Below, piece by piece: positions 24,451 to 43,107 of a stretch of DNA of 64,000 nucleotides. Numbering within the stretch: position 1 is the first letter of the stretch; every line of letters begins with the position of its first letter. Source of the stretch: an uncultured Gammaproteobacteria bacterium (lineage in GTDB: Bacteria; Patescibacteriota; Microgenomatia; UBA8517; JACQJR01). The translations under genes and the position numbers were made by a program. The stretch is taken from positions 19,842 through 83,841 of the forward strand of contig CAYTZB010000003.1 in assembly GCA_964442455.1 (NCBI GenBank), given 5' to 3'. The notes beneath the pieces are model-generated. The model searched no databases. It was not told where the DNA came from and saw only the letters and a list, made by a program, of their open reading frames with translations.

Positions 24451-25422
24451 ATGTCATTAGACGGTAACTGGATTGATTTAATAATTTTGATTATCCTTGC
24501 TTTCTATGTCCTCGAAGGATACGAGAGGGGAGTGTGGATACTTCTTGCTGATTTGGCTTCCTTTATTGGGGCGCTTGCCGCGGCACTGCGGTTTTATCCT
24601 ACGGGCAGCAAGTTTTTTATTGATAATTTTTCTCTTCCTCACTCATTTGCCAATGCGCTTGGGTTTCTGGTGATTGCAGTACTTTCTGAAGTCATTTTTT
24701 CCACTCTCATTGTACGATGGGTATTGCCTAAACTTCCGCGTGCACTATGGGAGACGCGACTGCAAAAATTCCTTGGGATTATTCCCTCCTTCATTAATGG
24801 TCTTATTCTTATTGCCTTTTTCTTGACACTTTTTATTGCGTTGCCACTTCGTCCACCCATAAAAACAGCGATTAACAACTCAAAAATTGGTGGCTACTTA
24901 GTTTCCCAAACGGTTCGGCTTGAGCGTCAATTGGCAGATATCTTTGGGGGAGCCCTTAAGGATACGTTAACTTATTTTACGATTGAGCCTCAATCTCATG
25001 AAAGCGTTCCTCTTAATTTTGAGCCAGAAGAACTTACCGTTGATGAGGCGGCGGAAACGCAAATGTTCGCACTTGTTAACAAAGAGCGTCGCGAGCGGGG
25101 AATACCCGAGCTTGTGTGGGATCAGAAAATTGTTATCGTGGCGCGAGCGCATTCACGCGACATGTGGGAGCGACGCTATTTTTCGCATGTTGACCCTGAT
25201 GGAAAAAGTCCGGGTGATCGGCTTGAACAAGGTGGTGTGAATTTTACGTACGCAGGTGAAAATCTTGCCCTTGCCCCAACGACACAGCTTGCCCACCAAG
25301 GCTTAATGAACTCTGAAGGCCACAGACGCAATATTTTAGACCCAAGTTTCAGAAGAGTGGGGATTGGAGTAATAGACGGTGGAGTTTATGGAAAGATGTT
25401 TACGCAGAACTTTGCTGATTAG
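24451..25422 (+). CDS. CvpA-like membrane domain fused to a CAP/SCP (cysteine-rich secretory protein) domain
   Basis: N-terminal multi-TM region like colicin V production protein. C-terminal CAP motifs HSRDM...GENL...GHRRNILDPSFRRVGIGV. Confidence 0.6.
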   Translation: MSLDGNWIDLIILIILAFYVLEGYERGVWILLADLASFIGALAAALRFYPTGSKFFIDNFSLPHSFANALGFLVIAVLSEVIFSTLIVRWVLPKLPRALWETRLQKFLGIIPSFINGLILIAFFLTLFIALPLRPPIKTAINNSKIGGYLVSQTVRLERQLADIFGGALKDTLTYFTIEPQSHESVPLNFEPEELTVDEAAETQMFALVNKERRERGIPELVWDQKIVIVARAHSRDMWERRYFSHVDPDGKSPGDRLEQGGVNFTYAGENLALAPTTQLAHQGLMNSEGHRRNILDPSFRRVGIGVIDGGVYGKMFTQNFAD

Positions 25423-25843
25423 GCGAAGTATTACCACTGTTTTTACTTCTTAGTTCATGGAGTTCCTCAAGAGCAGTTTTAATTTCCAGTTCTCTTTTTG
25501 GGCCGATTAGTATTAGATAATTAGATAACTGTTGGTCTTTTCCTATAGTTTCTTCGAGCTGAGTTATTGTTTCTATACCGTTCCTTCTTAGAGCTGAGTG
25601 GGTTCCATAGGGTAAACTAAGATGAGTTAGAGCGTTATCACCCCATTGTTTAATGTTCAATTGATACAGATTAAATAGTTGTCTTGCGGTATAAGGCAGA
25701 CTTTTATAATCGATTGAGGATAAATCAAGTTTTCCGTCAACACGATTCGTGGCAAAAAATTGATGGGTTCTACCCTTGTAGTTTTCAGAAAATACTTTGC
25801 CTGATTCTGACTGAAGCGGTAGGTCTTCTTCCTGTTCAGCCAT
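25400..25843 (-). CDS. hypothetical protein with RpoA-CTD-like helix-hairpin-helix segment
   Basis: LSLPYGTHSALRRNGIETITQL resembles the RNA polymerase alpha C-terminal domain HhH. 147 aa. Confidence 0.3.
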   Translation of the reverse strand: MAEQEEDLPLQSESGKVFSENYKGRTHQFFATNRVDGKLDLSSIDYKSLPYTARQLFNLYQLNIKQWGDNALTHLSLPYGTHSALRRNGIETITQLEETIGKDQQLSNYLILIGPKRELEIKTALEELHELRSKNSGNTSPNQQSSA

Positions 25844-25905
25844 AGTTTTAACAGGTTAGGTTATAATTTTACTACAACTTACTGAAATTACAAATTTTTA
25901 AAGGT

Positions 25906-26244
25906 ATGAATATGGGTAAATATGAAGAAATTTATGCAGTTGTAAGAAAGATTCCAAAAGGGAAAGTGGCAACGTATGGGCAGATAGCGAAACAGTTAAA
26001 AGTTCAAAATGCAAAGTTAAAATTTAACCCAAGATTAGTGGGACGAGCGCTTCATAAGAATCCATACCCCAAAATTATTCCGTGTCATCGGGTGGTTGAT
26101 AGAAATGGAAAAATTGCAGATAGCTTTGCCTTTGGTGGTGCAAGGGAACAAAGGAAACGATTGTTGGAAGAAGGAGTGGGATTTAAAGATACTATGCATG
26201 TGGATTTGGGGAAATGCTTTTGGGGAATTTCTGTAGTAAAATAA
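25906..26244 (+). CDS. methylated-DNA--protein-cysteine methyltransferase, DNA-binding domain (MGMT/Ogt-like)
   Basis: Active-site PCHRVV motif with the cysteine retained. Short 112-aa single-domain form. Confidence 0.7.
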   Translation: MNMGKYEEIYAVVRKIPKGKVATYGQIAKQLKVQNAKLKFNPRLVGRALHKNPYPKIIPCHRVVDRNGKIADSFAFGGAREQRKRLLEEGVGFKDTMHVDLGKCFWGISVVK

Positions 26245-26251
26245 ATGCAGG

Positions 26252-26815
26252 ATGGGTAGACAGCGCTTTCTGTTTCTTTCAATTCCTGTTTTAATTTTTA
26301 TCGCATTTTTGATTGGGACAAAAATTGGAAAGGTTGGTTTTCCATACGGTGCAGTTGCTGGCTCACTCGAAAAATTTGAATATCTCGCAAAACAACAAAG
26401 CAATGTTTGTGCAAGGCTTAGTGCAGAACAACTTTCAACTTATCCTGAAGATGCGCGACTTGCGGGTTCTTGTTGTGGACCTATGGATTTCCACAGCTAT
26501 AGTGAGCAAGTCGAGGGTTTAAAAAAATACAAAAGCATTTCTCAAATTCCAAAAGACCCATATGATATACCAGTAACGCTTGCCAAAGAGCTCCTAAGTT
26601 ATAAAGATAATATTACGCTTAATTCGGATCAGCAAAAAGTTTATGATGAGGCTACAGAATTATCTCATGAAGGTGGACCGTGTTGTTGTCGGTGTTGGCG
26701 TTGGGATGCTTTTGAAGGTTTAGCAAAATACTTAATAACACAAAATAATTTTACATCTGAACAAATTGCCAAAATTTGGGATTTGGAAGATGGGTGCGGC
26801 GGTTCGGGTCATTAG
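26252..26815 (+). CDS. membrane-anchored Cys-rich protein (uncharacterised PCC-W-D domain)
   Basis: N-terminal TM segment. Motifs GSCCGP and GGPCCCRCWRWDAFEGL. Paralogous to the C-terminal domain of the rhodanese fusion at 30588-31793. Confidence 0.35.
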   Translation: MGRQRFLFLSIPVLIFIAFLIGTKIGKVGFPYGAVAGSLEKFEYLAKQQSNVCARLSAEQLSTYPEDARLAGSCCGPMDFHSYSEQVEGLKKYKSISQIPKDPYDIPVTLAKELLSYKDNITLNSDQQKVYDEATELSHEGGPCCCRCWRWDAFEGLAKYLITQNNFTSEQIAKIWDLEDGCGGSGH

Positions 26816-26864
26816 GGTAAGCTTGACTTCTCTCATAAACCTGAACTAGAATGGCGTAGTTCTC

Positions 26865-27104
26865 ATGGCCCGCGAACAAGAAGGCTACTACACGCCCGAT
26901 CCTGAATCAGAGTCCCAGAGAGAGGCAACGATAGCTGTGTATCAGAAATTACCTCCCACAGAGAAAGTCATGATAGATGAACTCGTAAGACGTATCGAGG
27001 AGAAGAGAATAAGAAGGTTTGGAATAAGGAGTGCAATTGAGTTCATAGGTGCCTTAGGAATTTTTCTTGTTAGACAAGAAGAAAACACTGTAAAGAGACC
27101 GTAG
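26865..27104 (+). CDS. hypothetical small protein
   Basis: 79-aa ORF only. Confidence 0.15.
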   Translation: MAREQEGYYTPDPESESQREATIAVYQKLPPTEKVMIDELVRRIEEKRIRRFGIRSAIEFIGALGIFLVRQEENTVKRP

Positions 27105-27135
27105 GATTTTCTGCCCGCACATAAAAGAAGAATAT

Positions 27136-27936
27136 ATGGATGATCTTGAAAACCTTCCACGCCGCGAGCGGCGAAGACTTTTGCGTGAGCAGCAAAGAGA
27201 GCAAGAAGGGAAAAGGGGAGTAGCTGCGGGAGCACGCAATTGGATTATTGGATTATTGATTATTGTACTGTTCGCTGCTGGGGTGTGGTGGTTTTATAAA
27301 GAATCAACAAAACCTTTACCGGGGCAAGCGGTAGCAGATTTGGGTAGAGAACATGTAACTGACATATCAGACGTTACATACAATTCAAATCCACCAACAT
27401 CTGGGAAACATTTTCCGGTATGGGCAAAGAGGGGAATGTATGACAGAGTACTTTCTGATGGATATCTTCTCCATTCACTTGAGCACGGTTATGTTGTCGC
27501 AAGTTATAATTGCGACAAGTTAAAAGTTCAAAGTGTAAAGTTCAAAGTTATTTCTAGGGTTTTTGCGCATGAAACTGAAGAACCTCATGAAGAGCCGGTA
27601 GACGCAACTCCTTCAGGTGAAATAAAACCATTAACCCGAATGACAGTACAAACAAAAGCTGGTATGAGCTGGTTTACTCCCGAGGATCCGCCATCTATTG
27701 AAGTAGAACTTCCAGAGAGCTTTAAGAGTGAAAGTTGTAAAAACCTAGTTGATGAATTATCCCAAATAGCAAAAGGATACGATAGGGTTATTGTTGTTCC
27801 TAGAGTGGACCTTGACACCCCTATTGCTCTTACTGCGTGGGGAAGAATTGAAAAGATGGATAGTTTTGACCGAGAACGGATTAAGACGTTTATCTCCGCC
27901 TTCCACAACAAAGGCCCTGAAAAAACGCAAGAGTAG
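27136..27936 (+). CDS. DUF3105-like membrane-anchored protein
   Basis: N-terminal TM segment. GKHFPVWAKRG...LHSLEHGYVV signature typical of DUF3105. Confidence 0.45.
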   Translation: MDDLENLPRRERRRLLREQQREQEGKRGVAAGARNWIIGLLIIVLFAAGVWWFYKESTKPLPGQAVADLGREHVTDISDVTYNSNPPTSGKHFPVWAKRGMYDRVLSDGYLLHSLEHGYVVASYNCDKLKVQSVKFKVISRVFAHETEEPHEEPVDATPSGEIKPLTRMTVQTKAGMSWFTPEDPPSIEVELPESFKSESCKNLVDELSQIAKGYDRVIVVPRVDLDTPIALTAWGRIEKMDSFDRERIKTFISAFHNKGPEKTQE

Positions 27937-27969
27937 TAATGTTTACACACCGTTTGCTACACTAAAGAT

Positions 27970-28641
27970 ATGGAAAAGTACCCGTTTAAGATTTTAGTCG
28001 TATTTTATTCATTCACCGGGCATACAGCAAAACTCGCCACGCATATTGCAGGTGGTGCTCAAGAAATAAGTGGTGCAGATGTAATCGTGCGTCAAGCGCC
28101 AGAAATTCTTCCCAACGAGGTTTTTGAGCGCTATCCGCAGGCACAGAAAGCCAGAGAAGTAAACCAGCATATCCCTGTTGCAACTATTGAAGAGTTAACC
28201 TCTGCTGATGGCATTGCCTTTGGGACGCCAGTCCATTTTGGAAGTTTTGCAAGTCAGCTCAAACAATTTATCGATCAATTGACACCAGCATTTCTGAAAG
28301 GAACAGTGGTTGGAAAACCTGCTGTATGTTTTGCGAGTGCGGGAGGCATACACGGTGGTGAGGAGGCAGCTCTTATTTCGCTGATGATTCCACTTCTCAA
28401 CTTAGGAATGATACCAATTGGCGTACCATATCCTATTCAAGGAGAGAGTAGAGAGTTTGACGCCGGGAGCCCCTACGGCGCTATCTTTGTATCGGGACAC
28501 GAGGGTGAGAAAGAGCTTACCGAAGGCGATATAAAAATTGCTCGTATCTTAGGGAAACGACTTTCAGCTATGGCGAAGGTGATGAAATATGGGTCTATGC
28601 AATTTCCTGAATGCCAGTTTTTAACCAGTAAATACGAATAA
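27970..28641 (+). CDS. WrbA-like flavodoxin-fold NAD(P)H:quinone oxidoreductase
   Basis: KILVVFYSFTGHTAKLA flavodoxin-like FMN-binding start. Size and motifs match the WrbA family. Confidence 0.7.
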   Translation: MEKYPFKILVVFYSFTGHTAKLATHIAGGAQEISGADVIVRQAPEILPNEVFERYPQAQKAREVNQHIPVATIEELTSADGIAFGTPVHFGSFASQLKQFIDQLTPAFLKGTVVGKPAVCFASAGGIHGGEEAALISLMIPLLNLGMIPIGVPYPIQGESREFDAGSPYGAIFVSGHEGEKELTEGDIKIARILGKRLSAMAKVMKYGSMQFPECQFLTSKYE

Positions 28642-28668
28642 TCTCCGCTTGTACCCAAAACTGACCTA

Positions 28669-28716
28669 TTGACAATCCCCGAGAGGATTACTACAATATC
28701 CCTGGTGGGGGGATAT
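28669..28716 (+). promoter_or_regulatory. sigma70-like promoter (TTGACA-17 nt-TACAAT) overlapping an inverted-repeat operator ATATCCC-N5-GGGGATAT
   Basis: The -35 TTGACA lies at 28669-28674 and the -10 TACAAT at 28692-28697. A GC-rich palindrome sits at 28696-28716, resembling CsoR operators (ATACCC...GGGGTAT), directly upstream of csoR. Confidence 0.45.
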
Positions 28717-28739
28717 CCTTCAACCAACCTAGGACACAT

Positions 28740-29009
28740 ATGGCCTATAGACCAAAAGATACCCAAGAAAGAATTATTCATAGACTAAAAATTGCCGAAG
28801 GACACTTAAAACGCGTTAAGAAAATGGTTGAGATGGGTGCGTATTGTCCTGATGTTATCCACCAATCGCAAGCTGTCCAAGCAGCACTCAAAAAAGTTGA
28901 TGAGATTGTCCTCCATGGCCATCTCCACACATGCGTACTTGGAGATATTCATGGATCTGAAAAAGAAAAACTAACAGAGGAACTCGTTTTACTTTTTAAG
29001 AAGACGTAG
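28740..29009 (+). CDS. csoR: CsoR/RcnR-family metal-sensing transcriptional repressor
   Basis: 89 aa. Cys-His-Cys ligand spacing as in CsoR (..YCPDVIHQ...HLHTCV). All-helical protein. Confidence 0.75.
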   Translation: MAYRPKDTQERIIHRLKIAEGHLKRVKKMVEMGAYCPDVIHQSQAVQAALKKVDEIVLHGHLHTCVLGDIHGSEKEKLTEELVLLFKKT

Positions 29010-29012
29010 GGA

Positions 29013-29567
29013 ATGCTTTCTATGACTATGACCGACCCAAACGGGATTAACAAATTGTTAGCAAAAGTTGAGGGGGTGGTGCGTGAGAAAAAACTTGATT
29101 TATCGTCTGACGAAGACCTTTCAATCGGAATAATGAATCTTATCTCAATAGAGGAGCATCTTTTCTTTACCTCCCAAAAAACAGGCAAAGAGGAATATCT
29201 TAGCCTCTTAAATGAGGTGAGGGATATGCGCAAAGAGCTTTTGGGGCGGCTCGTTACCGACTATGAAGGAGAGGTGTGGTGTATCTCAAAGCATCTGCTT
29301 GCTGCTTCGATGAGGTTGATAGAAGTTGGAACGAAATATCTAGCAAAGGGAAAGAAATCCGATGCCCGTGAATTTTTCTCAAAAGCTTATAAGCTTTACA
29401 GTCTTTTTTGGGGACTAAATCTTGGATTAGTGAAAGTTAATGAGATTAAAAGAGAGGACGACAATGTTCGTTTCCTCAATGATGATGGAAAAAAGAGTGC
29501 ATCAGTTTCGTTACTGGACAAATTAGGGCAGGTTCTCAAAAAGGCAATTGATTGTTGCAGGGAGTAA
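29013..29567 (+). CDS. hypothetical helical protein
   Basis: 184-aa ORF co-oriented with and downstream of csoR. Confidence 0.3.
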   Translation: MLSMTMTDPNGINKLLAKVEGVVREKKLDLSSDEDLSIGIMNLISIEEHLFFTSQKTGKEEYLSLLNEVRDMRKELLGRLVTDYEGEVWCISKHLLAASMRLIEVGTKYLAKGKKSDAREFFSKAYKLYSLFWGLNLGLVKVNEIKREDDNVRFLNDDGKKSASVSLLDKLGQVLKKAIDCCRE

Positions 29568-29570
29568 CTT

Positions 29571-30077
29571 ATGCAAAAAGATTGGAAGATTTTAGCAGGT
29601 AGTATTTTGTTTACCTTTCTTCTTATTGTTGGCTTGGTTCTTTGGCAGGGGAGAGGAGGATTAAGCAAAACCCAAGTATTGTCAGACGGTTCTGGAATTG
29701 AGCTTTCTCCTCAACCTTCGGATTGGGGCGAAATACAGATTAATGGAGGAATTGTAACCCGTGAATTTGAGATTAAAAATACAAGCGAAAGATCAATAAA
29801 ACTTAAAAAAATTGTAACCTCATGTATGTGTACCACTGCCGCAGTCAAGATTGGGGAAGAGTCAACAAGATTTTTTGGAATGGAGATGAGCGGTGATAAG
29901 AATCCGCCGGTTAATATGGAAATTGATGCAGGTGAGGTAGCAAAGATTATTGTTAAATTCGACCCAGCAGCTCATGGCCCTCAGGGCGTGGGGCCGTTTG
30001 AAAGAATAGTCTGGCTCACTTTTTCTGACCCGGCGGGAGTCAAAGAGCTTAAGTTTAATGGGAGAGTTGTGCAATGA
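29571..30077 (+). CDS. DUF1573-like protein with N-terminal TM anchor
   Basis: IVTSCMCTT motif typical of DUF1573. Confidence 0.4.
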   Translation: MQKDWKILAGSILFTFLLIVGLVLWQGRGGLSKTQVLSDGSGIELSPQPSDWGEIQINGGIVTREFEIKNTSERSIKLKKIVTSCMCTTAAVKIGEESTRFFGMEMSGDKNPPVNMEIDAGEVAKIIVKFDPAAHGPQGVGPFERIVWLTFSDPAGVKELKFNGRVVQ

Positions 30078-30586
30078 ACATACTAAGGTATTTACTGGTT
30101 GCCATTCTCCCTGTCTTTTTTTTAGCAAAACCTGCGTTTGCTCATTGTCCTTTATGCGTTGCAGGAGCAGGCATTGGTCTTTCGCTCGCAAATAGTTTGG
30201 GAATTGATGATAGCATAACTGGTGTGTGGATAGGAGCCTTTCTGGGAGCAGTTTCTTTTTGGACAGAGGTGTTTCTATCCAAGAAGAAAATCAAAAATGT
30301 GCTGATGCGACCGTTACTCTATCTCGTTATCTTTATTAGCACCATTTGGTCATTCTATGCATTCGGTTTGGTCAACAAGCATTTTGGTACCATTTTCGGT
30401 CTTGATAAGTTGACCTTTGGCATAATTTCCGGAGGAGCTGTCTTTTATTTGGCTGATTTTGTTGATGGTTGGGTGATAAAGAGGGTGGGCCGAGTATTTA
30501 TCCCTTATCAGCGAATTTATGTGAGTTTAGGAAGTATGCTTGTTTTGAGCATACTTATTTATATTCTTATTAACTATTATATTTAA
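30074..30586 (+). CDS. hypothetical integral membrane protein
   Basis: About 5 TM helices. Overlapping start (ATGA). Confidence 0.35.
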   Translation: MNILRYLLVAILPVFFLAKPAFAHCPLCVAGAGIGLSLANSLGIDDSITGVWIGAFLGAVSFWTEVFLSKKKIKNVLMRPLLYLVIFISTIWSFYAFGLVNKHFGTIFGLDKLTFGIISGGAVFYLADFVDGWVIKRVGRVFIPYQRIYVSLGSMLVLSILIYILINYYI

Positions 30587-30587
30587 T

Positions 30588-31793
30588 ATGTCGCGTATTA
30601 TCTCGAAAACAATGAAGTTTAATAAAAGGATACTATTATTTCTTGTCTTTAGTAGTCTTATAATTGTGGGATTTCTTTTGGGCACAAATTATAACTCCCT
30701 ACAAAATTTTTCCTTTCCCGAGACTTTTAGAATAAAGATTGCTGAGAATATCTCTCCAAGACAACTTGATAAAGAGCTTAAAGACAAAAACTTCACTTTT
30801 GTTAACGTTCATACCCCCTATGAGGGGGAAATTAAAGGGACGGATATGTTTATCACCCATGATGAAATGATTGCGAATAAAGCTCAACTTCCAAATGACA
30901 AAAACGCTCCGATTATCCTTTACTGTAAAACTGGAAGAATGAGTGCCGATGCCCTTGCGACTCTTCGGGGTATGGGTTATACGAACGTCCGCCATCTTGA
31001 AGGAGGAATGGATGCATGGAAGAGGGCGGGGTATGAAGTGCTTGACCTATCAAGGCTTCCGGAAGAAGTTTTACCCAAAGAAGGTATGGTGCTTCCGGTT
31101 AAGTGGGGACAGATAGGTCCACGGCTCGTTGAAGCGGGAGTGATAGATTTGGATAAATTCAATAATAATTTAACGGACGAACAGAAAAAGATTTTGACCC
31201 AAAGTTCAAGCGAGTTTATCAAAATAGATAGTTCCAATAGCCATTTTGTTGTCAATATGCTGTGGGCGTTGGGTCTGGCGCAAAAAAGCATAGTGTACGA
31301 GGAAGGCCCAATGGGGAAAGAGCATAAGGCAGGAGTTGGTAACTTTGCCTCAACAGGGGGGTGGACGCTTGGTCGAGAAGATGCAGTTCGTTATCTTAAC
31401 CAATATGAGCTTGTCCCGTTAACTGCCGAACAGCAGCAAAAGGTTGCTGAGATTGCCAAGAATGTGTACCGGCCCTGTTGCGGAAATTCAACGTGGTTTC
31501 CTGATTGCAACCATGGGATGGCAGCGCTGAGTGCGATTGAGCTTATGGTTGCCGAAGGTGTACCAGAGGAGCAGATTTATAAGTATATCCTCGCGCTTAA
31601 TTCCTACTGGTTTCCTGATACTTATATAGTGACTGCAACCTATTTTGCTCGGCAGGGCATACAGTGGAAAGATGTAGATGCTAAGCTTGTGTTAGGGAAA
31701 GATTTTTCTTCAGCGCAGGGAGCGCGTGAGGTTGCCAAAAAGGTTGGACCGTTGCTCTATAGAGCAGAACGGAGCGGAAGTTGCGGAGCATGA
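30588..31793 (+). CDS. rhodanese-domain protein fused to an uncharacterised Cys-rich domain
   Basis: Rhodanese active-site loop YCKTGRMS...HLEGGMDAWKRAGY. C-terminal domain with the PCCGNSTWFPDCNHG motif and a terminal SCGA. Confidence 0.6.
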   Translation: MSRIISKTMKFNKRILLFLVFSSLIIVGFLLGTNYNSLQNFSFPETFRIKIAENISPRQLDKELKDKNFTFVNVHTPYEGEIKGTDMFITHDEMIANKAQLPNDKNAPIILYCKTGRMSADALATLRGMGYTNVRHLEGGMDAWKRAGYEVLDLSRLPEEVLPKEGMVLPVKWGQIGPRLVEAGVIDLDKFNNNLTDEQKKILTQSSSEFIKIDSSNSHFVVNMLWALGLAQKSIVYEEGPMGKEHKAGVGNFASTGGWTLGREDAVRYLNQYELVPLTAEQQQKVAEIAKNVYRPCCGNSTWFPDCNHGMAALSAIELMVAEGVPEEQIYKYILALNSYWFPDTYIVTATYFARQGIQWKDVDAKLVLGKDFSSAQGAREVAKKVGPLLYRAERSGSCGA

Positions 31794-31813
31794 GCGGGAG
31801 GGAGGTGAGATAG

Positions 31814-32074
31814 ATGAAGTTAAATGAACAGGCCTTTGCAAATGCGTCAGCTATACTTACCGGACTTGTTTATCTTGTTTGTTCTCTTTTAGTAGCGCTT
31901 TTCCCGGATTTTTTCAGAATAGTTAGTCAAAGCTGGTTTCATGGCATCAATTTAGAGACAATCTGGACAGGAAGTGCTAGAGGAAATTTCTTATTGGGGC
32001 TTATTACGGCGGTAGTTGGAACGTGGTTAACAGGTTGGGCGTTCGCGTGGGTGTACAATAAATTGAGTAAGTAA
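31814..32074 (+). CDS. small membrane protein
   Basis: 86 aa with two or three hydrophobic helices. Confidence 0.3.
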   Translation: MKLNEQAFANASAILTGLVYLVCSLLVALFPDFFRIVSQSWFHGINLETIWTGSARGNFLLGLITAVVGTWLTGWAFAWVYNKLSK

Positions 32075-32133
32075 CCCTCCTTCGTCCGCCAGCTGGCGGA
32101 CTTCGGCGAGGGCAAGGGAGGTGAGAAAGTACC

Positions 32134-32274
32134 ATGATGGGATGGGGATATGGCAACATGATGAATTGGGGAGGTGGCACGCTTGGTTTTTTGGCTACGC
32201 TGTTTTGGGTTGTGATTTTGATTGACTTAATTTTAGTAGGAGTATGGCTTTGGAAACAGATTAACAAGAAATAA
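32134..32274 (+). CDS. 46-aa membrane peptide (not in ORF track)
   Basis: ATG preceded by GGAGGTGAGAAAG. Translation MMGWGYGNMMNWGGGTLGFLATLFWVVILIDLILVGVWLWKQINKK has a Gly-rich N-terminus and one TM helix. Confidence 0.3.
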   Translation: MMGWGYGNMMNWGGGTLGFLATLFWVVILIDLILVGVWLWKQINKK

Positions 32275-32293
32275 CTTTCAAGAAGGGAGAGAA

Positions 32294-32605
32294 GTGAAGA
32301 TTCAATTGATTAGAAATGAAGGGTGCCATATTTGGCAAACTACAGAAAAGGAACTTAGGGCGGCGCTTGCTCAAGCAGGGATACCGCCCGAGTATGAAAT
32401 TGTGGTGGTTAGTAACAATGAGGATGCTACTCGGTATCGTTTCTTTGGCTCTCCTCAAATAACGATTGATGGACAAGATTTAGATCCCACAGCCCAAAAT
32501 TTCGAACAGTTTCAAGCGCTTGGATGTCGTATTTATATCTGGCAGGGGAAAATGTATGAATATCCGCCGAAAGAAATGATTCTAGCTGCTCTCCAAAGGA
32601 AATAA
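32294..32605 (+). CDS. hypothetical small protein upstream of the heavy-metal ATPase
   Basis: 103 aa with GTG start. Two Cys (GCH..., LGCR). Possible thioredoxin-like or metal-handling accessory, but no firm motif. Confidence 0.3.
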   Translation: MKIQLIRNEGCHIWQTTEKELRAALAQAGIPPEYEIVVVSNNEDATRYRFFGSPQITIDGQDLDPTAQNFEQFQALGCRIYIWQGKMYEYPPKEMILAALQRK

Positions 32606-32607
32606 AT

Positions 32608-34821
32608 ATGACCTACACGTGTCCCATGCATCCTGGTGTTCGCCAGGATAAACCTGGGCGTTGTCCGAAGTGTGGAATGGACTTAATTCCCATTACAAAA
32701 AAGCAAGAGCAAAAAGGTATAGATCATAATAATCATATGGAACATATGATGAAACCTGCTTCAGAATTATCCTGGTGGGAAAAATTTAAGATGAGCATGG
32801 GTATGACAATGGGTATGGAGCATGGCGGGTTGGCAGGAAGAGAAATGGCTCGTCTCATGGAACAAGATATCAGAAACAAATTCTTTTTTGCCTTGTTCTT
32901 TTCGATTCCAATTGTCGCTTACTCGCCCTTGGGAGAAAAATTTTTGGGAAAACTTCCCAGTCCGATCCCGGTACACTGGCTGACGTTTATCCTAACGACA
33001 CCTGTCTTTTTCTACTCCGGTTGGATTTTCCTTTACTCGTCATATAAAGCCCTGCAGAAAAAAACACTCAATATGGCGGTTTTAATTGCCGTCGGCATCA
33101 CGGCGGCATACTGCTTTAGCATCGTTCTGACTTTATTGGGTTCAAGCGATTCGTATTATGAGGCCGCGGCGCTTTTGATCACTTTCGTTCTTTTCGGCCA
33201 TTGGATGGAAATGAAGTCAAGGCGTGGCACGACAGATGCTTTGCAAGCGCTTTTTGCGTTAGTCCCGCCGCAGGCGAGGGTAATAAGAAATGGCAAGGAA
33301 GAGCTTATCCCGACCGCTCAAGTCAAGGTCGGCGACACTGTCGTTCTTAAACCCGGCGATAAAGTGCCGGTAGATGGTCAAATTATAGACGGTGAAACTG
33401 CGATTGATGAATCACTAGTCACCGGCGAATCAATCCCGGTTGCCAAGGAAGAAGGCGACAAAGTAATTGGCGGGTCTATCAATCACTCCGGATCGGTCAG
33501 GTTCAAAGCCACAAAGGTCGGGGAGGATACAGCCCTTGCCCAAATTGTCAAAATGGTTGAAATCGCCCAAAGCTCCAAAGCTCCAGGGCAAAAGATTGCT
33601 GATAGATTCGCCCAGTATTTGGTAATTGTCGCGGTCGGCGGCGGACTGCTTGCCTTTGGAGCATGGTACTTCATTATGGGTGCACCTCTCCTTATTGCGC
33701 TTACCTTTGCAATATCAACCACTGTCATTGCCTGCCCCGACGCTTTAGGCCTTGCAACACCAACTGCCGTCGCGGTTGGTACCGGGTTGGGCGCTAAGCA
33801 TAATATTCTTATTAAAGATGCACCAACGCTTGAACAAATGTCCAAAATCCAATCAGTAGTTTTAGATAAAACCGGAACCTTAACCGAAGGTAAACCTAAA
33901 ATTACCGACGTTATCGTTGTCAAAGGTTTTACCAAAGATGAACTACTTAAACTTGCTGCTGCTGCCGAAGTAAAATCAAGCCATCCATTAAGTTTAGCGG
34001 TTATTGAGGAGGCCAAAAAAAGAAAACTAAAAATCCCGGCAAACGTTTCGAAATTTAAAAACCTTGAGGGTCATGGCGTAGAGGCAACTGTAGAAGGCAA
34101 GCATGTACTCATTGGAACTGTTAGGTTAATGAAAGATCGTGGTGTAGACATAAAACCTCTGCAAAAAGAAATAGATAGACTCCTTGCAGAAGGCAAAACA
34201 ATAATGATTCTTCCAATAAACGGTAAGATTGCTGGTGTTGCAGCCGCAGCAGATCCTATAAAGGAAAATGCCAAAAAGGCAGTCGAGCGAATGGAAGAGC
34301 TAGGACTTGAGGTAGCGATAATTACCGGAGATAACCAAAAAACTGCAGAGGCAATAGGTAAACAGCTCGGCATCAAAAGAATTTTTGCAGAGGTTTTGCC
34401 CCAAGACAAAGCAAAATATGTAAAAAAACTTCAGGATGAAGGAAAGTTTGTGGCAATGGTAGGAGATGGGGTTAATGATGCGCCAGCATTAGCCCAAGCT
34501 GATATTGGTATAGCAATAGGCGCAGGAACCGATGTGGCAATTGAGACAGCAAAAGTGGTGTTAATGAAATCTGATCCAGCTGATGTATTGCGGGCAATCA
34601 GACTTTCCAAAGCAACAGTTACTAAGATGAAGCAGAATCTGTTTTGGGCATCAATTTATAATCTTTTGGCAATTCCTGTTGCAGCAGGCGTGCTTTATCC
34701 AACGTTTGGTATATCCCTAAGACCTGAAATATCAGCACTACTCATGAGTCTTTCTTCCATAATAGTTGCTACCAACGCAGTTTTACTAAACAGAGCAGAG
34801 AAAGATCTGGTGTCAGTGTAA
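32608..34821 (+). CDS. heavy-metal-translocating P1B-type ATPase (CopA-like)
   Basis: N-terminal zinc-ribbon-like metal-binding motif CPMHPGV...CPKCGM. Transmembrane CPD (CPx) motif. DKTGTLT, GDGVNDAPAL. Confidence 0.8.
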   Translation: MTYTCPMHPGVRQDKPGRCPKCGMDLIPITKKQEQKGIDHNNHMEHMMKPASELSWWEKFKMSMGMTMGMEHGGLAGREMARLMEQDIRNKFFFALFFSIPIVAYSPLGEKFLGKLPSPIPVHWLTFILTTPVFFYSGWIFLYSSYKALQKKTLNMAVLIAVGITAAYCFSIVLTLLGSSDSYYEAAALLITFVLFGHWMEMKSRRGTTDALQALFALVPPQARVIRNGKEELIPTAQVKVGDTVVLKPGDKVPVDGQIIDGETAIDESLVTGESIPVAKEEGDKVIGGSINHSGSVRFKATKVGEDTALAQIVKMVEIAQSSKAPGQKIADRFAQYLVIVAVGGGLLAFGAWYFIMGAPLLIALTFAISTTVIACPDALGLATPTAVAVGTGLGAKHNILIKDAPTLEQMSKIQSVVLDKTGTLTEGKPKITDVIVVKGFTKDELLKLAAAAEVKSSHPLSLAVIEEAKKRKLKIPANVSKFKNLEGHGVEATVEGKHVLIGTVRLMKDRGVDIKPLQKEIDRLLAEGKTIMILPINGKIAGVAAAADPIKENAKKAVERMEELGLEVAIITGDNQKTAEAIGKQLGIKRIFAEVLPQDKAKYVKKLQDEGKFVAMVGDGVNDAPALAQADIGIAIGAGTDVAIETAKVVLMKSDPADVLRAIRLSKATVTKMKQNLFWASIYNLLAIPVAAGVLYPTFGISLRPEISALLMSLSSIIVATNAVLLNRAEKDLVSV

Positions 34822-34928
34822 ATGCACTTTTGCTTCGAGGAACAAAGCTATAAAGCAGTTGGGGCTTGACATAATATACACCTTTTGTGGTAGTGTGAAA
34901 AAGGGAGCGGTAACCGCTCCTTAACTAT

Positions 34929-35249
34929 ATGGCAACTAGTGCTGTGACAGATAACGATTTTGAGGATAAGGTAATAAAGAGTAAAACACCCATTCTTGTT
35001 GATTTCTGGGCCGCATGGTGTGGGCCGTGCCGGCTTGCTGAACCTGTTCTTGAGGAGCTTTCTTCGGAATATAAAGATAAAATAGTTGTTGCAAAATTAA
35101 ATGTTGACGAAAATCAAAAGATGACGGAAAAGTATAGTGTCATGTCTATTCCTACCACAATTCTTTTTAAGAATGGCCAAGAAGTCGGGCGTCAAGTAGG
35201 TTTTGCGGGGAAAACAGAGTTTGAAGAACTAATAAAAAAAGCACTTTAG
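34929..35249 (+). CDS. trxA: thioredoxin
   Basis: WCGPC active site in WAAWCGPCR. 106 aa. Confidence 0.85.
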   Translation: MATSAVTDNDFEDKVIKSKTPILVDFWAAWCGPCRLAEPVLEELSSEYKDKIVVAKLNVDENQKMTEKYSVMSIPTTILFKNGQEVGRQVGFAGKTEFEELIKKAL

Positions 35250-35257
35250 TGCTTTTT

Positions 35258-35392
35258 CAAATCCGAAGCACGAAATCCGAAATCTGAAACAATATTTAAA
35301 TTCAAAATCACAAGTTCAAAACGTTTAGAATTTGAGAAATTAGAATTTTGAATTTGTTTCGAATTTAGAAATTCGAATTTAGAATTTACTTA
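35258..35392. repeat. AT-rich palindromic element, CGAAGCACGAA family (intergenic copy)
   Basis: AATCCGAAGCACGAAATCCGAAATC ... TTTCGAATTTAGAAATTCGAATTT arms. Follows a hairpin right after the trxA stop. Confidence 0.6.
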
Positions 35393-35409
35393 AAAGGAGG
35401 TGATAAATT

Positions 35410-35667
35410 ATGGATCCAACAAATCCAACAGGGACTGATCAGCCGATGCCGGGAGGCTCTGCTCCAACCAGCGGAGGGGGTGAACCGGTCTCAACACCGA
35501 GCGGACAAGGCGGACCAACTGTTCCACCACCACAACCAACTCCTGGTGCGTCAACACCTCCAACGGAGCCTACCTCGCCGGCAGGCGGGCCAGTACAAAC
35601 TCCATCTGAAGGGGGAGACGAGCCTACAGGCGGGCAAACCCCCCCTCCAGTAGGTGGTCAACTCTAG
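35410..35667 (+). CDS. Pro/Gly/Thr-rich small protein (low complexity)
   Basis: Strong SD AAAGGAGGTG 8 nt upstream of the ATG. 85 aa, compositionally biased. Confidence 0.25.
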   Translation: MDPTNPTGTDQPMPGGSAPTSGGGEPVSTPSGQGGPTVPPPQPTPGASTPPTEPTSPAGGPVQTPSEGGDEPTGGQTPPPVGGQL

Positions 35668-35755
35668 GGGAGTGTAAAAGGCCACCGGCCAAGAGGGCCT
35701 TCACCGAACCAGAAGGTTCTCCGAACCGGAGGTCTGGCCCGGAAGGGAGAGTTTT

Positions 35756-36805
35756 ATGGTACAGAGCGTCTATGATGTGGCTATTATAGGTAGTGGCCCT
35801 GCTGCATTTACTGCTGCTATTTACACAACGCGTGGTGCGGCAAAGACGTTGATTTTGGGTGGAAGCAAATGGGGTGGGCAGTTGATGTTGACAACAGAAG
35901 TTGAGAACTTTCCGGGCTTCCCTTCAATACTTGGACCAGAGCTCATGGAAAAAATGAAGGGACATGCTACAAAATTTGGAGCGGTGTTTGTAGCAGCGGA
36001 TGTTGAGGAAGTAGACTTTGCCCCGCCAACTGGCCCGCTTCGACGCGAGGCGAGCGGGGTATTTACGCTTAAAGCAGGCGGTCAGGAGTACAAGGTTGCA
36101 TCAGTTATCATTGCAACCGGAGCAAGCGCACGCTGGCTTGGTCTCCCTTCAGAACAAAAGTATATTGGTCGAGGTGTTTCTTCCTGTGCACCATGCGATG
36201 CCCCGTTTTTTAAAGATAAGAACGTCATTGTGGCGGGAGGAGGGGACTCGGCTATTGAAGAAGCGTTGGTGCTCATTAAATATGCAACCACAGTAACAAT
36301 TGTCCACAGACGTGATAGCTTTCGTGCCTCGAAGATTATGCAACAGCGTGCGCTAACAAATCCAAAGATAAAGGTTATGTGGGATACGGTGGTTGAAGAG
36401 GTTATGGGGAATGAGAAAGTGACTGGTGTTAAGCTCAAAAACGTAAAGACAAACCAAATAACTGAGTTGCCAATTGACGGAGTGTTTGTGGCTGTCGGAC
36501 ATGATCCTGCAACGAATCTACTTACGGGAAAAGTACAGCTTGATGAAAAGGGGTATGTCAAGATTGTTACTCACGATAAATACAATACTTCTAATGAAGA
36601 AGGAAAAGTGATTGGTAATAAATTTTCTACCATGACAAGTGTAGAAGGTGTTTTTGTCGCAGGAGATGTCCATGATTTCCATTACCGACAAGCGATAACT
36701 GCCGCTGGCTTTGGCTGTCAAGCCGCTATGGATGCGCTCGCGTGGTTAGATGACCTCCGGTCCAGAGAGACCTCCGGTCCGGCGGAAGTGCGCGTTGGGG
36801 CTTGA
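35756..36805 (+). CDS. trxB: thioredoxin-disulfide reductase
   Basis: FAD-binding GSGPAA. Redox CAPC motif. NADPH-binding GGGDSA. About 349 aa. Confidence 0.8.
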   Translation: MVQSVYDVAIIGSGPAAFTAAIYTTRGAAKTLILGGSKWGGQLMLTTEVENFPGFPSILGPELMEKMKGHATKFGAVFVAADVEEVDFAPPTGPLRREASGVFTLKAGGQEYKVASVIIATGASARWLGLPSEQKYIGRGVSSCAPCDAPFFKDKNVIVAGGGDSAIEEALVLIKYATTVTIVHRRDSFRASKIMQQRALTNPKIKVMWDTVVEEVMGNEKVTGVKLKNVKTNQITELPIDGVFVAVGHDPATNLLTGKVQLDEKGYVKIVTHDKYNTSNEEGKVIGNKFSTMTSVEGVFVAGDVHDFHYRQAITAAGFGCQAAMDALAWLDDLRSRETSGPAEVRVGA

Positions 36806-36837
36806 CACTCGACTTTTAATACCTGATACTTACTCCA

Positions 36838-37557
36838 ATGGCCAAAAAACTACCAAATCTTCCAAATCTCATTACTCCTATCCTTGTCGTTCTTCTTGTC
36901 GCTGCAGCATTCACCATTGGTATGTTTTGGCAAAAAGTGCAAGTTTTAGAGAAAGGTGCAGGGACTCAAACTACAACAGGAGCAACACGAACACCCGCAC
37001 CTGCTCCCACAGTACTTTCTTCTGAGAAATTTTCAGAGGTAGTTCGCGACGCAGTTTTTGTTGCCGGAAATAAAGATGCGAAAGTGAAATTAGTTGAGTT
37101 TACCGATTTTGAATGTCCTTTTTGTGGAAGATTCTTTACCGATACATTTCCGCAAATAGAAAAGGAATACCTTACAAATGGGAAGATTGCTTACTATATC
37201 CGCCATTTTCCGCTTTATTCTATTCACCCCAATGCGGAAAACGCAGGGTTAGCCGCTGAATGTGCGCGCGAGCAGAATAAATTCAAGGAAATGCACGACA
37301 TGATTTTCCAAAATCAAAAAGCGATAAGTGTGCAAGACTTAAAAGGGTATGCGGCAAAGCTTGGGCTCAAAACCGACCAATTTAATTCTTGTCTTGATGA
37401 TAAAAAGTACAAAGCGAACATTGATAGAGACGTAAAGTTGGGAAATGAGGTTGGTGTCTCCGGAACCCCCACTTTTTACCTCAACGGCCGCGTCATCAAT
37501 GGCGCCCAACCGTTTGCCAACTTCAAAACCGCGATTGATGAAGAATTGAAGAAGTAA
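36838..37557 (+). CDS. DsbA-like thiol:disulfide oxidoreductase with N-terminal TM anchor
   Basis: CPFC active site in FECPFCGRF within a thioredoxin fold. Confidence 0.7.
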   Translation: MAKKLPNLPNLITPILVVLLVAAAFTIGMFWQKVQVLEKGAGTQTTTGATRTPAPAPTVLSSEKFSEVVRDAVFVAGNKDAKVKLVEFTDFECPFCGRFFTDTFPQIEKEYLTNGKIAYYIRHFPLYSIHPNAENAGLAAECAREQNKFKEMHDMIFQNQKAISVQDLKGYAAKLGLKTDQFNSCLDDKKYKANIDRDVKLGNEVGVSGTPTFYLNGRVINGAQPFANFKTAIDEELKK

Positions 37558-38316
37558 CTATCTTCTTCCTACTCGCCTTCCTAAGCCAGAGCGATAATTG
37601 GGATCACTAGAAGTTTTGAAAACTGAAGGGAGACATGTTGATAATAAATTTGCTCCTGATTTCCAATTTTGAGCTAAGTTATATCTGATGTTTCCTCTTA
37701 CAAGATTAATGAGTTCGTCTCTTCGGTCAATCCAATTACCGCCCTCTTTTATTATCTCTTCCATAGATGGTCTAGATTCATTTAGATACGCTTCGCGAAG
37801 CTCTGCTAATTTCACATCAGGATAAACAAAAATATAAATAGCTCTTCTTAATGCTTGCTCGGTGACTTCTTCTGAATCTTCAGTGGAGATGTTTGAATTA
37901 AGGAAGGCAGTGTCGTCAATTATATCTACACTTTCTATAATTTTCCTCCTTAGGATACCTACTACTTCTGAAAATCTTAGCTGAGGAATTCTTAAGTCTA
38001 TGCCACCCCAAAAAGTACCTTCGTGTATACTTTCAGGTTCATCTGATTTAGTATCAAGTAAACTTTCTATTAATTTATTTAAGGAGCCCACTTCATAAAT
38101 TGGAGTTTTTGATCCAACTGTGATGAGGCAATACTCTACCGGTTTATATGGTGGTAAGTATCCGGGGTTAAAGATAGAAGGTGGTACAACTTTATCGCTT
38201 GTAACTGTAATAGCGGGATTTGTATAGAGCTGTTCTCGGATGCGCGTGAGTAGTGAAGCTGAAGTTTCGCCGGTTTCTTGTGGTGGTTGTGATGGTTGTT
38301 CAGCTTTGTTCCTCAT
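37558..38316 (-). CDS. hypothetical protein
   Basis: 252-aa ORF with no recognisable motif. Confidence 0.3.
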   Translation of the reverse strand: MRNKAEQPSQPPQETGETSASLLTRIREQLYTNPAITVTSDKVVPPSIFNPGYLPPYKPVEYCLITVGSKTPIYEVGSLNKLIESLLDTKSDEPESIHEGTFWGGIDLRIPQLRFSEVVGILRRKIIESVDIIDDTAFLNSNISTEDSEEVTEQALRRAIYIFVYPDVKLAELREAYLNESRPSMEEIIKEGGNWIDRRDELINLVRGNIRYNLAQNWKSGANLLSTCLPSVFKTSSDPNYRSGLGRRVGRR

Positions 38317-38414
38317 GCCCTTTCTAGTCTATTGGTCACTTTGACAAGCAAACTCTTTTTACATCCAAATTTAATTTTTGTCAAGGATAATTGATGAAGA
38401 ATTGAAGAAGTAAG

Positions 38415-41579: not shown

Positions 41580-41961
41580 ATACAATTGACATTTTTATAA
41601 CAGCATTCAAGAAAACCGCGACCCGTAAGGTCGCGGATGAATTGAACGCTGATATGTCATCCTCCTTTAGAGGTGAAAACCCCGTTCGTAAGAACGGGGA
41701 GGATGTCATAAATAGCATACAACCCTCCAGCAAACGCAGCTTGAGCCGTTCCGCCAGCTGGCGGATGAAAAGCGAAAGCTAAGTTGCGGAGGGTGGTTTA
41801 ATAAGCACCTTGACAATCAGAAAGTGATCGGAAGTCAATTTTTTGTACTTTCGATGTAACTCAGTACAAAAATACTGAGCGAAGTCGAATGTATTTTTGA
41901 GGGTTTGATCCTGGCCCAGGATGAACGCTAGCGGCGTGCCTTAGGCATGCAAGTAGAACGG

Positions 41962-42160
41962 TCCTTGTGCTTTGCACAAGGAAATTCGAAGCACGAATTT
42001 TAAAGCACGAAATTCGAATATCGAAGCACGAAACAAATCATAAATTCAAATTTTCAAATGTTTCAAACATTAGAATTTTGAACATTTAGTATTGTTTCGA
42101 ATTTCGTATTTCTGATTTCGAATTTAATTTTCTTTCGGATTTTCTCGCGCAGAGCGCGAG
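41962..42160 (+). repeat. intervening-sequence-like palindromic element inserted in 16S helix 6 (V1)
   Basis: Lies between GCAAGTAGAACGG and GGATAGTTGCAAACGGGTGAGTAACGCG. Bounded by hairpins CCTTGTGC-TTTG-CACAAGG and CTCGCGC-AGAG-CGCGAG. Core is the CGAAGCACGAA...TTCGAATTTCG element. Confidence 0.6.
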
Positions 42161-42941: not shown

Positions 42942-42990
<49 letters not shown>

Positions 42991-43107
42991 ACCTGCACAA
43001 CCAGTGGAGCATGTGGTTTAATTCGAGACAAACCGAAGGACCTTACCTGGGTTTGACATGCTACCGTTCACCCCGATGGAAACATCGGGGGATCAGCAAT
43101 GATGGTA

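Follow-up and report, generated by a model that had tools for sequence, protein, structure and literature searches.

Gene Content of the Locus

The stretch of DNA analyzed (the window) comprised 64,000 nucleotides of contig CAYTZB010000003.1, a contig of Candidatus Microgenomates within the candidate phyla radiation (CPR), and contained a copper/redox locus at 26252-37557. The locus encoded two uncharacterized Cys-rich proteins, which were assigned to two families designated A and B and considered as candidates for copper handling outside the cell. The family A protein (26252..26815, +) had 187 aa in the open reading frame (ORF) list and carried an N-terminal membrane anchor. Family B was a domain of 245 residues (31050..31793, +) that formed the C-terminal part of a membrane-anchored fusion protein (30588..31793, +), with a rhodanese domain at residues 57-146 (PF00581, E 4.7e-13) followed by domain B at residues 155-401. 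Two further genes define the locus as copper-related: csoR (28740..29009, +; PF02583, E 6.5e-22), behind its own promoter and operator, and copA, the gene of a P1B copper ATPase (32608..34821, +; TIGR01511, and PF19335 for its HMBD domain). The public tags HYV21_00070 and HYV21_00110 belong to proteins identical to window proteins.

The genes and families listed in an earlier note on this DNA were all recovered at their positions from the ORF list and from Pfam and NCBIfam profile matches. A 79-aa ORF (26865-27104, no family match), a membrane-anchored DUF3105 protein (27136..27936, +; PF11303, E 8e-30) and a WrbA-like NAD(P)H:FMN protein of flavodoxin fold (27970..28641, +; Pfam FMN_red, E 8e-15) were located between A and csoR. 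The genes between csoR and copA encoded p184, a soluble helical protein with DCCRE at its C-terminus (29013..29567, +; no Pfam family and no hydrophobic segment), a membrane-anchored DUF1573 protein with an S-C-M-C-T motif (29571..30077, +; PF07610, E 1.4e-10), the multi-pass membrane protein TM170 (30074..30586, +; no Pfam family), the rhodanese-B fusion, a DUF5676 protein with two transmembrane (TM) segments (31814..32074, +; PF18926, E 5e-20), a 46-aa peptide with a single TM segment (32134..32274, +; ORF list, hydrophobic segment) and a small DUF2703/thioredoxin-fold protein (32294..32605, +; PF10865, E 1.4e-7). Downstream of copA were the genes of thioredoxin (34929..35249, +; PF00085, E 5e-31), thioredoxin reductase (TrxB; 35756..36805, +; Pyr_redox_2, E 4.6e-43) and a membrane-anchored DsbA-like (Thioredoxin_4) oxidoreductase (36838..37557, +; PF13462, E 1.2e-35). 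No Pfam or NCBIfam family was assigned to A, domain B, TM170, p184 or the 46-aa and 79-aa products. The A, B, DUF1573, DUF3105 and DsbA proteins each had one N-terminal hydrophobic segment, so they were predicted to be membrane-anchored with their bulk outside.

CsoR, Promoter and Operator

The CsoR protein scored 78 bits against PF02583 (cut-off 22.8), and its closest PDB matches were the CsoR structures of M. tuberculosis and Geobacillus. Its numbering was identical to that of M. tuberculosis CsoR (2HH7), and Y35, C36, H61, C65 and E81 were all kept. Work on M. tuberculosis CsoR has defined these five residues as the Cu(I)-sensor signature. As the x-C-H-C ligand set (C36, H61 and C65) and the second shell (Y35/E81) were both present, the regulator is, by its residues, a genuine Cu(I)-type CsoR.

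The top sigma70-like promoter match within 25800-38400 was TTGACA-17-TACAAT (28669..28697, +), which agreed at 11 of 12 positions. An inverted repeat at 28696..28716 (no strand), with ATATCCC and GGGATAT arms of 7 nt each, 7 nt between them and no mismatch, started inside the -10 box of this promoter. The sigma70-type promoter that the earlier note had placed before csoR was thus recovered together with an exact repeat; the spacer was N6 rather than the N5 given there when the repeat is read as ATATCCC-N6-GGGGATAT. The resulting CsoR-type operator, ATATCCCTGGTGGGGGGATAT, was a G-tract palindrome overlapping the -10 box. Counterparts were found 5' of csoR in two other loci (loci used for comparison are numbered with L): ATATACCCTAGGGGGGTATAT in L003 and ATATCCCCCATGGGGGGATAT in L005. 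The claimed likeness to known CsoR operators held, in that the three sites resembled both the Streptomyces CsoR-site consensus ATATACCCCTNAGGGGTATAT (PMC3902906) and the site proposed in S. aureus, ATACCctggGTGGGTAT (PMC10233261). No second operator was detected in the 64-kb window; the nearest candidate, at 42193, lay inside the 16S rRNA gene and was rejected as a chance match with 3 mismatches.

From csoR to copA (28740-34821), ten genes were encoded on the same strand behind one strong promoter. The intergenic gaps from csoR through the ATPase gene were at most 60 nt or were overlaps, so this segment is most simply one copper-derepressed transcript, and its assignment as a copper-inducible operon is well supported. 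The thioredoxin gene started after a gap of 108 nt 3' of the ATPase gene, and in L003 the thioredoxin, TrxB and DsbA genes lay on the strand opposite to the csoR block; the thioredoxin gene is probably a separate transcription unit. Control by CsoR is claimed here for 28740-34821 (about 6 kb) and not for the full 11 kb described earlier, because the A, DUF3105 and WrbA genes lie upstream of the sole operator and the Trx, TrxB and DsbA genes lie past the 108-nt gap. Within these limits, the description was upheld: a Cu(I)-type CsoR and its canonical operator stand at the head of a copper/redox locus. The CsoR plus CopA operon type is itself already well known.

The Copper Pump and Accessory Proteins

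The window ATPase scored 589 bits against the copper subfamily TIGR01511 (cut-off 397). Its N-terminus consisted of the HMBD domain (PF19335) followed by a Met/His-rich linker, and the N-x6-Y-N-x4-P and M-x2-S-S-x5-N motifs appeared in its translation as NLFWASIYNLLAIP and MSLSSIIVATN, respectively. Examination of the metal-binding transmembrane helix verified that the CPC of the P1B-1 class was replaced by CPD, and CPD was kept in the ATPases of the related loci L001 and L003. There is published precedent for CPD in a few copper pumps of Rhizobiales (PMC5552934). The pump is therefore a rare variant and not a new class; a CPD pump with an HMBD head offers a further handle on P1B metal-site diversity.

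TM170 carried the motif A-H-C-P-L-C directly after its first, signal-like hydrophobic segment, and this protein was conserved in L001 and L005. The genes of p184 and TM170 recurred as a pair near csoR in Microgenomates, often divergent from csoR, and the pair was also found in DPANN archaeal loci carrying family A (L032, L044 and L058). The 46-aa peptide had a Met/Gly/Trp-rich N-terminus (MMGWGYGNMMNWGGG), which may bind metal; its position was occupied by a 63-aa gene in L001. The csoR operon of L003 itself contained DsbD_TM/CcdA plus a redoxin.

Families A and B

Homology searches yielded 496 family A proteins in 319 clusters at 50% identity; the 323 species genomes with a member belonged to DPANN archaea, CPR bacteria, Nitrosopumilales and Anaerolineae. 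The best 150 representatives were inspected, all of them close members; the distant tail consisted of about 90 proteins with E values of 1e-10 to 1e-3. Eight Cys residues were invariant in A (C53, C74, C75, C144, C145, C146, C148 and C182). The last of these, in the tail D-G-C-G-G(-His), was present in 86 of 86 sequences, and Gly/His repeats followed the tail in many members. In the AlphaFold2 (AF2) model, A was mostly helical with a disordered Cys tail (pLDDT 85, pTM 0.75).

For domain B, 6340 homologues were collected, plus a further set from an archaeal query. The core motif R-P-C-C-x-N-x-T-x-F-x-D-C-N-H-G, with C297, C298, C307 and H309, was found in 233 of 240 sequences. About 238 of the 240 had a Cys third from the C-terminus (C399), in a tail that read G-S-C-G-A or a variant of it. 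Four architectures of domain B were observed: a membrane anchor with no other domain (about 300 aa), a rhodanese fusion (about 400 aa), a cupredoxin fusion (P0430 and P0435) and a fusion to a four-TM CxxC domain in proteins of about 490-510 aa. Its AF2 model was mostly helical (pLDDT 86, pTM 0.89) with a tail of pLDDT below 50. The small Cys/Gly tails described earlier for the window proteins are accordingly real and conserved in both families, and the low model confidence of the tails suggests that they are probably mobile.

The view that these Cys-rich proteins are uncharacterized was confirmed by Pfam, NCBIfam, PDB-sequence and PDB-fold searches. Family A gave nothing at the Pfam gathering level, and when 25 members were scanned to E 10 the only matches were weak ones to DUF5714, a family that is itself uncharacterized. 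These matches occurred in 22 of the 25 members (best E 1e-3; 13.9 bits for the window protein, cut-off 26.2) and paired A residues 127-166, the PCCCxCW region, with profile positions 106-145; every A score was below the cut-off, and family B had no such match. No published mention of DUF5714 was found in a literature search. No Pfam family was found for B in 23 members scanned to E 10. In hmmsearch against PDB sequences A had no match and B nothing significant (best E 0.41), and the best Foldseek matches of both AF2 models to the PDB had E of about 1 and template modeling scores below 0.25. Two candidate identities were rejected for A and B. CopG/DUF411 was excluded by the lack of any DUF411 or thioredoxin match to E 10 and by the mainly helical AF2 models, and the PCYCGC-motif proteins (PF13798) because this family was absent from the Pfam matches of all 25 A members and all 23 B members at an E limit of 10.

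The earlier note had suggested a metal- or persulfide-handling module. As a persulfide handler, B would take persulfide from the fused rhodanese for sulfur transfer or sulfide detoxification. The rhodanese is a PF00581 domain with its catalytic Cys in a six-residue loop, and the loop C-[KR]-[TS]-G-x-M-S (CKTGRMS in the window) was retained in 90 of 92 fused homologues; vicinal Cys residues and a mobile Cys tail could carry persulfides, and the CsoR family includes persulfide sensors. However, the window CsoR has a His ligand and the full Cu(I) signature and not the CstR-type pattern. Many B proteins, some in the same operon type, lacked rhodanese, and the fusion was confined to Microgenomates-type sequences among those sampled, B being cupredoxin-fused, CxxC-membrane-fused or unfused elsewhere. 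Genes of sulfide:quinone oxidoreductase, persulfide dioxygenase and TusA/DsrE were seen in no locus. A role of B as a persulfide carrier is considered quite improbable.

Immediately upstream of A in the window were a fusion of CvpA (Colicin V production) with a CAP domain (24451-25422) and an MGMT-like DNA_binding_1 protein (25906-26244), whose stop codon lay 8 nt 5' of the A start. The order CvpA/CAP fusion, MGMT-like gene and A was repeated in L003 and L004, so A may share a transcript with housekeeping genes and not with the copper operon.

Similarity Between A and B

BLASTP of A against the rhodanese protein left the region claimed to be shared unaligned. With shallow alignments, hhalign placed B 160-205 against A 97-133 (probability 86%), a different register, which arose because B has the L-T-x-E-Q-Q/K helix twice. 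Once the alignments were made more diverse (86 sequences for A and 33 for B), the best match became B 274-331 (31407..31580, +) against A 119-173 (26606..26770, +), covering 52 columns with a probability of 76% and E 2.3e-5, and it fell in the register proposed in the earlier note. In this alignment the two PCC motifs coincided, and the D-C-N-H-G Cys fell opposite the final Cys of C-C-C-x-C-W. The aligned segment of A comprised an I-x-L-T-x-x-Q-Q helix, then G-P-C-C-C-x-C-W and then two helices, and the helix order was the same in the AF2 secondary structures of A and B.

The A-B score of 39.4 exceeded those of 60 of 60 column shuffles (maximum 24.0) and 60 of 60 eight-column block shuffles (maximum 35.2), compared with 19.6 for the reversed profile. 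The block shuffles had a median of 28, which indicates that much of the score came from one or two motif blocks, and the similarity spanned about a fifth of domain B and not the whole domain. The two proteins had been called clearly paralogous; what stands of this is a stretch of about 55 residues that aligns in the claimed register above all shuffles, while BLASTP was blank and the resemblance is marginal and does not extend over a whole shared domain. As judged from these alignments, remote homology of A and B over a helix-PCC-helix-helix core of about 55 residues is likely but unproven.

Gene Neighborhoods and Fusions

Neighborhoods of B were compared in 42 Microgenomates-type metagenome loci of at least 6 kb each. 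CsoR was located within 8 kb of B in 34 of the 42 loci and a P1B ATPase in 35. DUF1573 was found within 2 kb in 38 loci and DUF5676 in 29, and TM170 was immediately 5' of B in 29; a WrbA-like gene was rarely nearby (2 of 42). Two gene orders were observed, with csoR at the head of both.

Neighborhoods of A were compared in 80 species loci with a mean flank of 11.7 kb. A P1B ATPase was present within 300 nt of A in 13 loci, within 2 kb in 19 and within 10 kb in 40. The commonest neighbor of A was a DsbA-like gene (within 300 nt in 20 loci, within 2 kb in 37), and DUF3105 was found within 2 kb in 20. Other recurrent neighbors were CcdA/DsbD_TM (10 loci), thioredoxin-like genes and COX2-like cupredoxins, together with ArsR-type and membrane-bound MarR-type regulators. 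In ammonia-oxidizing archaea the A frame abutted or overlapped the frame of an HMA-CPC P1B ATPase directly upstream, with an overlap in most cases (L024, L028, L029, L034, L048, L060 and L078; the records are labelled Nitrosotenuis, Nitrosarchaeum, Nitrosotalea and Nitrosopumilaceae, with a 'Saccharibacteria' label on L028), which looks like a two-gene copA-A unit. A was fused to SCO1/SenC in P0263 and to a YtkA-like domain in P0296.

The association of A and B with metal and redox genes was therefore confirmed in many genomes of both prokaryotic domains. The earlier note had named two outcomes that would speak against its proposal, assignment of the domain to a well-known family and a lack of conserved co-occurrence with metal and redox genes; neither was found, as no known family was assigned and the co-occurrence was conserved. 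Literature searches returned nothing relevant for DUF3105 with copper, DUF1573 with copper or CPR with CsoR, and the literature searched contained no mention of A, B or their DUF neighbors in a copper context.

Two further groups of proteins were observed beside A. Twelve ORFs in eight A loci encoded unannotated proteins of about 160-255 aa with the motif D-G-K-C-D-S-C-G-M, which resembles the CxxCGM of HMBD/TRASH domains, and with several His-x-His motifs; they sometimes occurred as tandem paralogues (L015 8187-8963; L017 1226-2609; L040 2179-3602; L070 361-1778; and others). In archaea, 164-aa proteins consisted of a membrane anchor, an outside Cys-rich segment (CAEACGENGADSCSISSCPYH) and a C-terminal MarR/DUF7343 winged helix (L039 10659-11150; L043 2564-3073; L057, L063, L077 and L081). 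These may be membrane-bound metal or redox sensors.

The Probable A-B Partnership and the Membrane Family M

The A gene was directly 5' of the B gene in an Aenigmarchaeote (L006), a Parcubacterium (L011) and a Micrarchaeote (L012), the B protein of L006 being 40% identical to that of the window. A lay within 300 nt of B in 9 of the 80 species loci. Both families were also connected to a third, unannotated family, M, which consists of four-TM proteins that end in a C-terminal Cys and have, within a helix, the near-invariant motif G-x-G-C-x-x-C. M was present in about 45 of the 80 A loci; it was fused to B in seven of those and to A in two, and it stood alone in many A loci. M-B fusions were found at L011 (7001-8530), L082, L080, L068, L067, L090, L030 and L062, and M-A fusions at L071 (9434-10585) and L066 (5156-6313). 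The gene pairs, the alternate fusions to M and the conserved Cys tails are a stronger link between A and B than their sequence similarity, and they suggest that A and B are functional partners.

M was absent from the window and had no consistent Pfam match. TM170 is not a member of M, since the hhalign probability was 1.5% and only a CPxC motif was common to the two. Assignment of M to a known transporter or DsbD family was also rejected: the sole MerT match was below threshold in one member (E 2e-4), and DsbD_TM and DsbD_2 gave no match in TM170, the M-B fusions or 15 stand-alone M proteins. Another M member matched MerF with E 0.76.

The frequency of DsbA beside A makes a thiol-disulfide relay the serious main rival to copper handling. 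According to this explanation, A and B would trade electrons with DsbA-like oxidoreductases through a CxxC membrane partner (M, or TM170 in the window), as an analogue of DsbD/ScsB in the reducing direction or of DsbB/VKOR in the oxidizing direction, and would serve surface disulfide repair or formation, especially under copper stress. It is consistent with DsbA-like genes being the top neighbors of A, with the recurrence of CcdA/DsbD_TM and thioredoxin-like genes, with the Trx and TrxB genes 3' of the window operon and with the DsbD_TM and redoxin of the L003 csoR operon. The M-A and M-B fusions resemble the layout of DsbD, a membrane domain plus a periplasmic domain, and shuttle or resolving cysteines typically sit on mobile terminal tails of this kind. 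DsbD/ScsB-ScsC (the latter named for suppressor of copper sensitivity) and CcdA-ResA likewise couple or fuse a membrane domain with essential Cys to extracytoplasmic Cys domains. The genes of these pathways occur together with those of DsbA-like or redoxin proteins, and the pathways are linked to copper tolerance. However, M is predicted to cross the membrane four times and did not match DsbD_TM, A and B are neither thioredoxin nor Ig-like domains, and the window has neither M nor CcdA. The predictions gave neither A nor B a thioredoxin fold or a CxxC motif, Pfam placed neither of them in a redox family, and the relay has no candidate for a terminal electron acceptor or donor. Fusion to cupredoxin, Sco and YtkA-like domains, together with tight linkage to pump genes, indicates the metal itself. 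On balance, the thiol-disulfide relay is regarded as rather unlikely, and the remaining alternatives (an uptake relay, the persulfide carrier and an unrelated function) rank below it.

The properties of M also raise the possibility of uptake in the manner of MerP-MerT, where A or B would catch Cu(I) or another soft metal outside and M would import it to supply cuproproteins in minimal genomes. The four-TM protein M places one near-invariant Cys inside a TM helix and a second Cys at its C-terminus, it showed the weak MerT and MerF matches given above, and it is frequent in A loci and fused to A or B. A is common in ammonia-oxidizing archaea, which depend heavily on copper enzymes. The Mer system has in common with A, B and M the passage of a soft metal between Cys pairs, vicinal Cys residues and a small Cys-bearing membrane protein. 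However, in the window and its relatives B is placed in a copper-induced exporter operon, which is the wrong regulatory logic for uptake, and M is missing from the window. The MerT match came from a single sub-threshold sequence, no Mer family was detected above threshold, no reductase was present, and the regulator is CsoR and not MerR. Uptake of this kind is judged improbable.

Finally, A and B could be unrelated surface proteins stabilized by disulfides, such as an enzyme or an adhesin, with convergent similarity and an inherited synteny. The short and marginal A-B alignment, the invariant B residues R295, N300, D306, N308 and H309, which are as active-site-like as metal-site-like, and the position of the A-B pairs of L006, L011 and L012 amid housekeeping genes would all agree with this. 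Against it, the links to P1B ATPases, DsbA and cupredoxins recurred in bacteria and archaea with differing gene orders, several copper-protein fusions arose independently, and A and B were alternately fused to the same membrane domain M. This explanation is accordingly very unlikely.

Proposed Copper Handling by A and B

The recurrence of A and B beside copper pumps, disulfide enzymes and each other, across hundreds of very small bacteria and archaea, suggests that they are probably unrecognized parts of extracellular copper handling. In the proposed mechanism, which is read from sequence, apo-CsoR would sit on the G-tract palindrome over the -10 box, and Cu(I) bound at C36/H61/C65 would free CsoR from the DNA. 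The derepressed cell would then make the Cu(I)-exporting CPD-variant P1B ATPase together with a set of membrane-anchored or membrane-embedded Cys-motif proteins: DUF1573 (SCxC), TM170 (HCPLC), rhodanese-B (PCC...C-x-H plus a mobile C-terminal Cys), DUF5676 and the Met-rich peptide. A, encoded 2 kb 5' of the promoter, and B would bind or relay Cu(I) through clustered thiolates, the candidate sites being the C144-C148 cluster in A and C297, C298, C307 and H309 in B. The flexible terminal Cys, with the His-rich tail in A, may act as a capture-and-hand-over arm by the pump exit, alongside the DsbA-type oxidoreductases. MerA has a flexible C-terminal Cys tail whose cysteines deliver Hg(II), and this serves as the model for such an arm. 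Exported copper would thereby be sequestered and surface thiols shielded or, in other lineages, cupredoxin- or Sco-type proteins fed; this outward direction of transfer is the one that we infer. The rhodanese that is fused to B in Microgenomates may use sulfane sulfur to load or repair the clustered cysteines.

Several observations weigh against this mechanism. In the window, A is not located 3' of the operator. A DsbA-like gene adjoined A more often than a pump gene did (37 versus 19 of the 80 loci within 2 kb), and the eight invariant Cys residues with DsbA neighbors fit a DsbA substrate or redox partner equally well. No CsoR or P1B ATPase was found near the A-B pairs of L006, L011 and L012, and A was near B in only 2 of the 42 Microgenomates-type loci. 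The synteny in Microgenomates may largely mirror close relatedness. The A-B similarity is marginal and consists mostly of one or two short motif blocks (block-shuffle median 28 versus 39), and no copper-binding family, fold or motif was detected for A or B in any library; what speaks for metal binding is contextual throughout. Taken together, the case that A and B are extracytoplasmic families doing thiolate-based Cu(I) handling beside a copper-inducible csoR-copA operon, as their sequences and contexts suggest, appears evenly balanced between acceptance and doubt.

A broader reading can be put forward only tentatively, with doubt outweighing confidence. Here A, B and M would together constitute an unrecognized extracytoplasmic cysteine relay, mainly in CPR, DPANN, ammonia-oxidizing archaea and Anaerolineae. 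A and B would be divergent paralogues with a new helical 'LTxxQQ-PCC' metal- or redox-site fold and a swinging C-terminal Cys. The relay might pass Cu(I) straight from P1B pumps to cupredoxin- or Sco-type clients or to a thiolate sink; or it might provide a quinone-independent drive of surface thiol chemistry in organisms without respiratory chains.

Comparison With Known Copper Systems

The window operon resembles the CsoR-run copZA and copXL (copBL) operons of Firmicutes and Actinobacteria in having CsoR, a G-tract palindrome, a P1B pump and an accessory protein tethered outside. It differs in having no CopZ/HMA chaperone gene and a pump with CPD instead of CPC or CPH. CopL, which is under CsoR control, is a surface lipoprotein for which binding of extracellular copper has been proposed (PMC10233261), and this is the role suggested for A and B; however, A and B were unrelated to CopL in every search run, and the window operon has several accessory proteins (DUF1573, TM170, B and DUF5676) that rely on clustered cysteines. 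In CopG (DUF411), the CxCC motif binds a tetranuclear copper cluster (PMC7558416). This short Cys run can be compared with PCCCxC in A and PCC...C in B, and CopG is likewise extracytoplasmic and genetically linked to copA. CopG has a thioredoxin-like fold and an adjacent Met, whereas the predictions for A and B are largely helical and neither matched a thioredoxin family, and CopG has not been described with the terminal Cys tail carried by A and B. By analogy, CopL and CopG are the closest functional counterparts, and A and B are members of neither.

What is new is the A and B accessory families, with M elsewhere, the partnership of A and B across ultra-small lineages of bacteria and archaea, and the tight wiring of the A, B and M families to pumps and DsbA. 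The predicted models of A and B are also without a detectable PDB fold match, by Foldseek alone. The receiver of Cu(I) on the outer membrane face after release from a P1B pump is poorly known outside Gram-negative bacteria, and the locus also bears on the protection or formation of surface disulfides in ultra-small CPR and DPANN cells. It names two large unannotated families, of which B has more than 6000 sequences and A is present in more than 300 species, and M as a third, all repeatedly tied to copper pumps, sensors of the CsoR or ArsR kind, DsbA, CcdA, cupredoxin and Sco. The locus thereby supplies small, soluble domains suited to expression, and it makes a case for new Pfam families and for improved annotation of thousands of 'hypothetical proteins' from groundwater metagenomes.

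Other Features of the Window

Between the thioredoxin and TrxB genes, a Pro/Gly/Thr-rich ORF of 85 aa (35410-35667) had no family match. The same position held a 66-aa gene in L001 and a 59-aa gene in L003, so the window ORF may be real and conserved. The ORF at 16859-19372 encoded another P-type ATPase, which was of a non-heavy-metal type and had AIPEGL where heavy-metal pumps have the CPx motif.

A complete rRNA operon was located at 41893-49278, with 16S, tRNA-Ile, tRNA-Ala, 23S and 5S genes. The 16S match covered 1703 nt compared with a model of 1533 nt, and the 23S match 3657 nt compared with 2925 nt, which points to sizeable insertions in both; rRNA genes of CPR bacteria have often been reported with insertions. 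The distance from the end of the 16S gene to tRNA-Ile was about 1 kb and contained an ORF of 170 aa (43738-44250).

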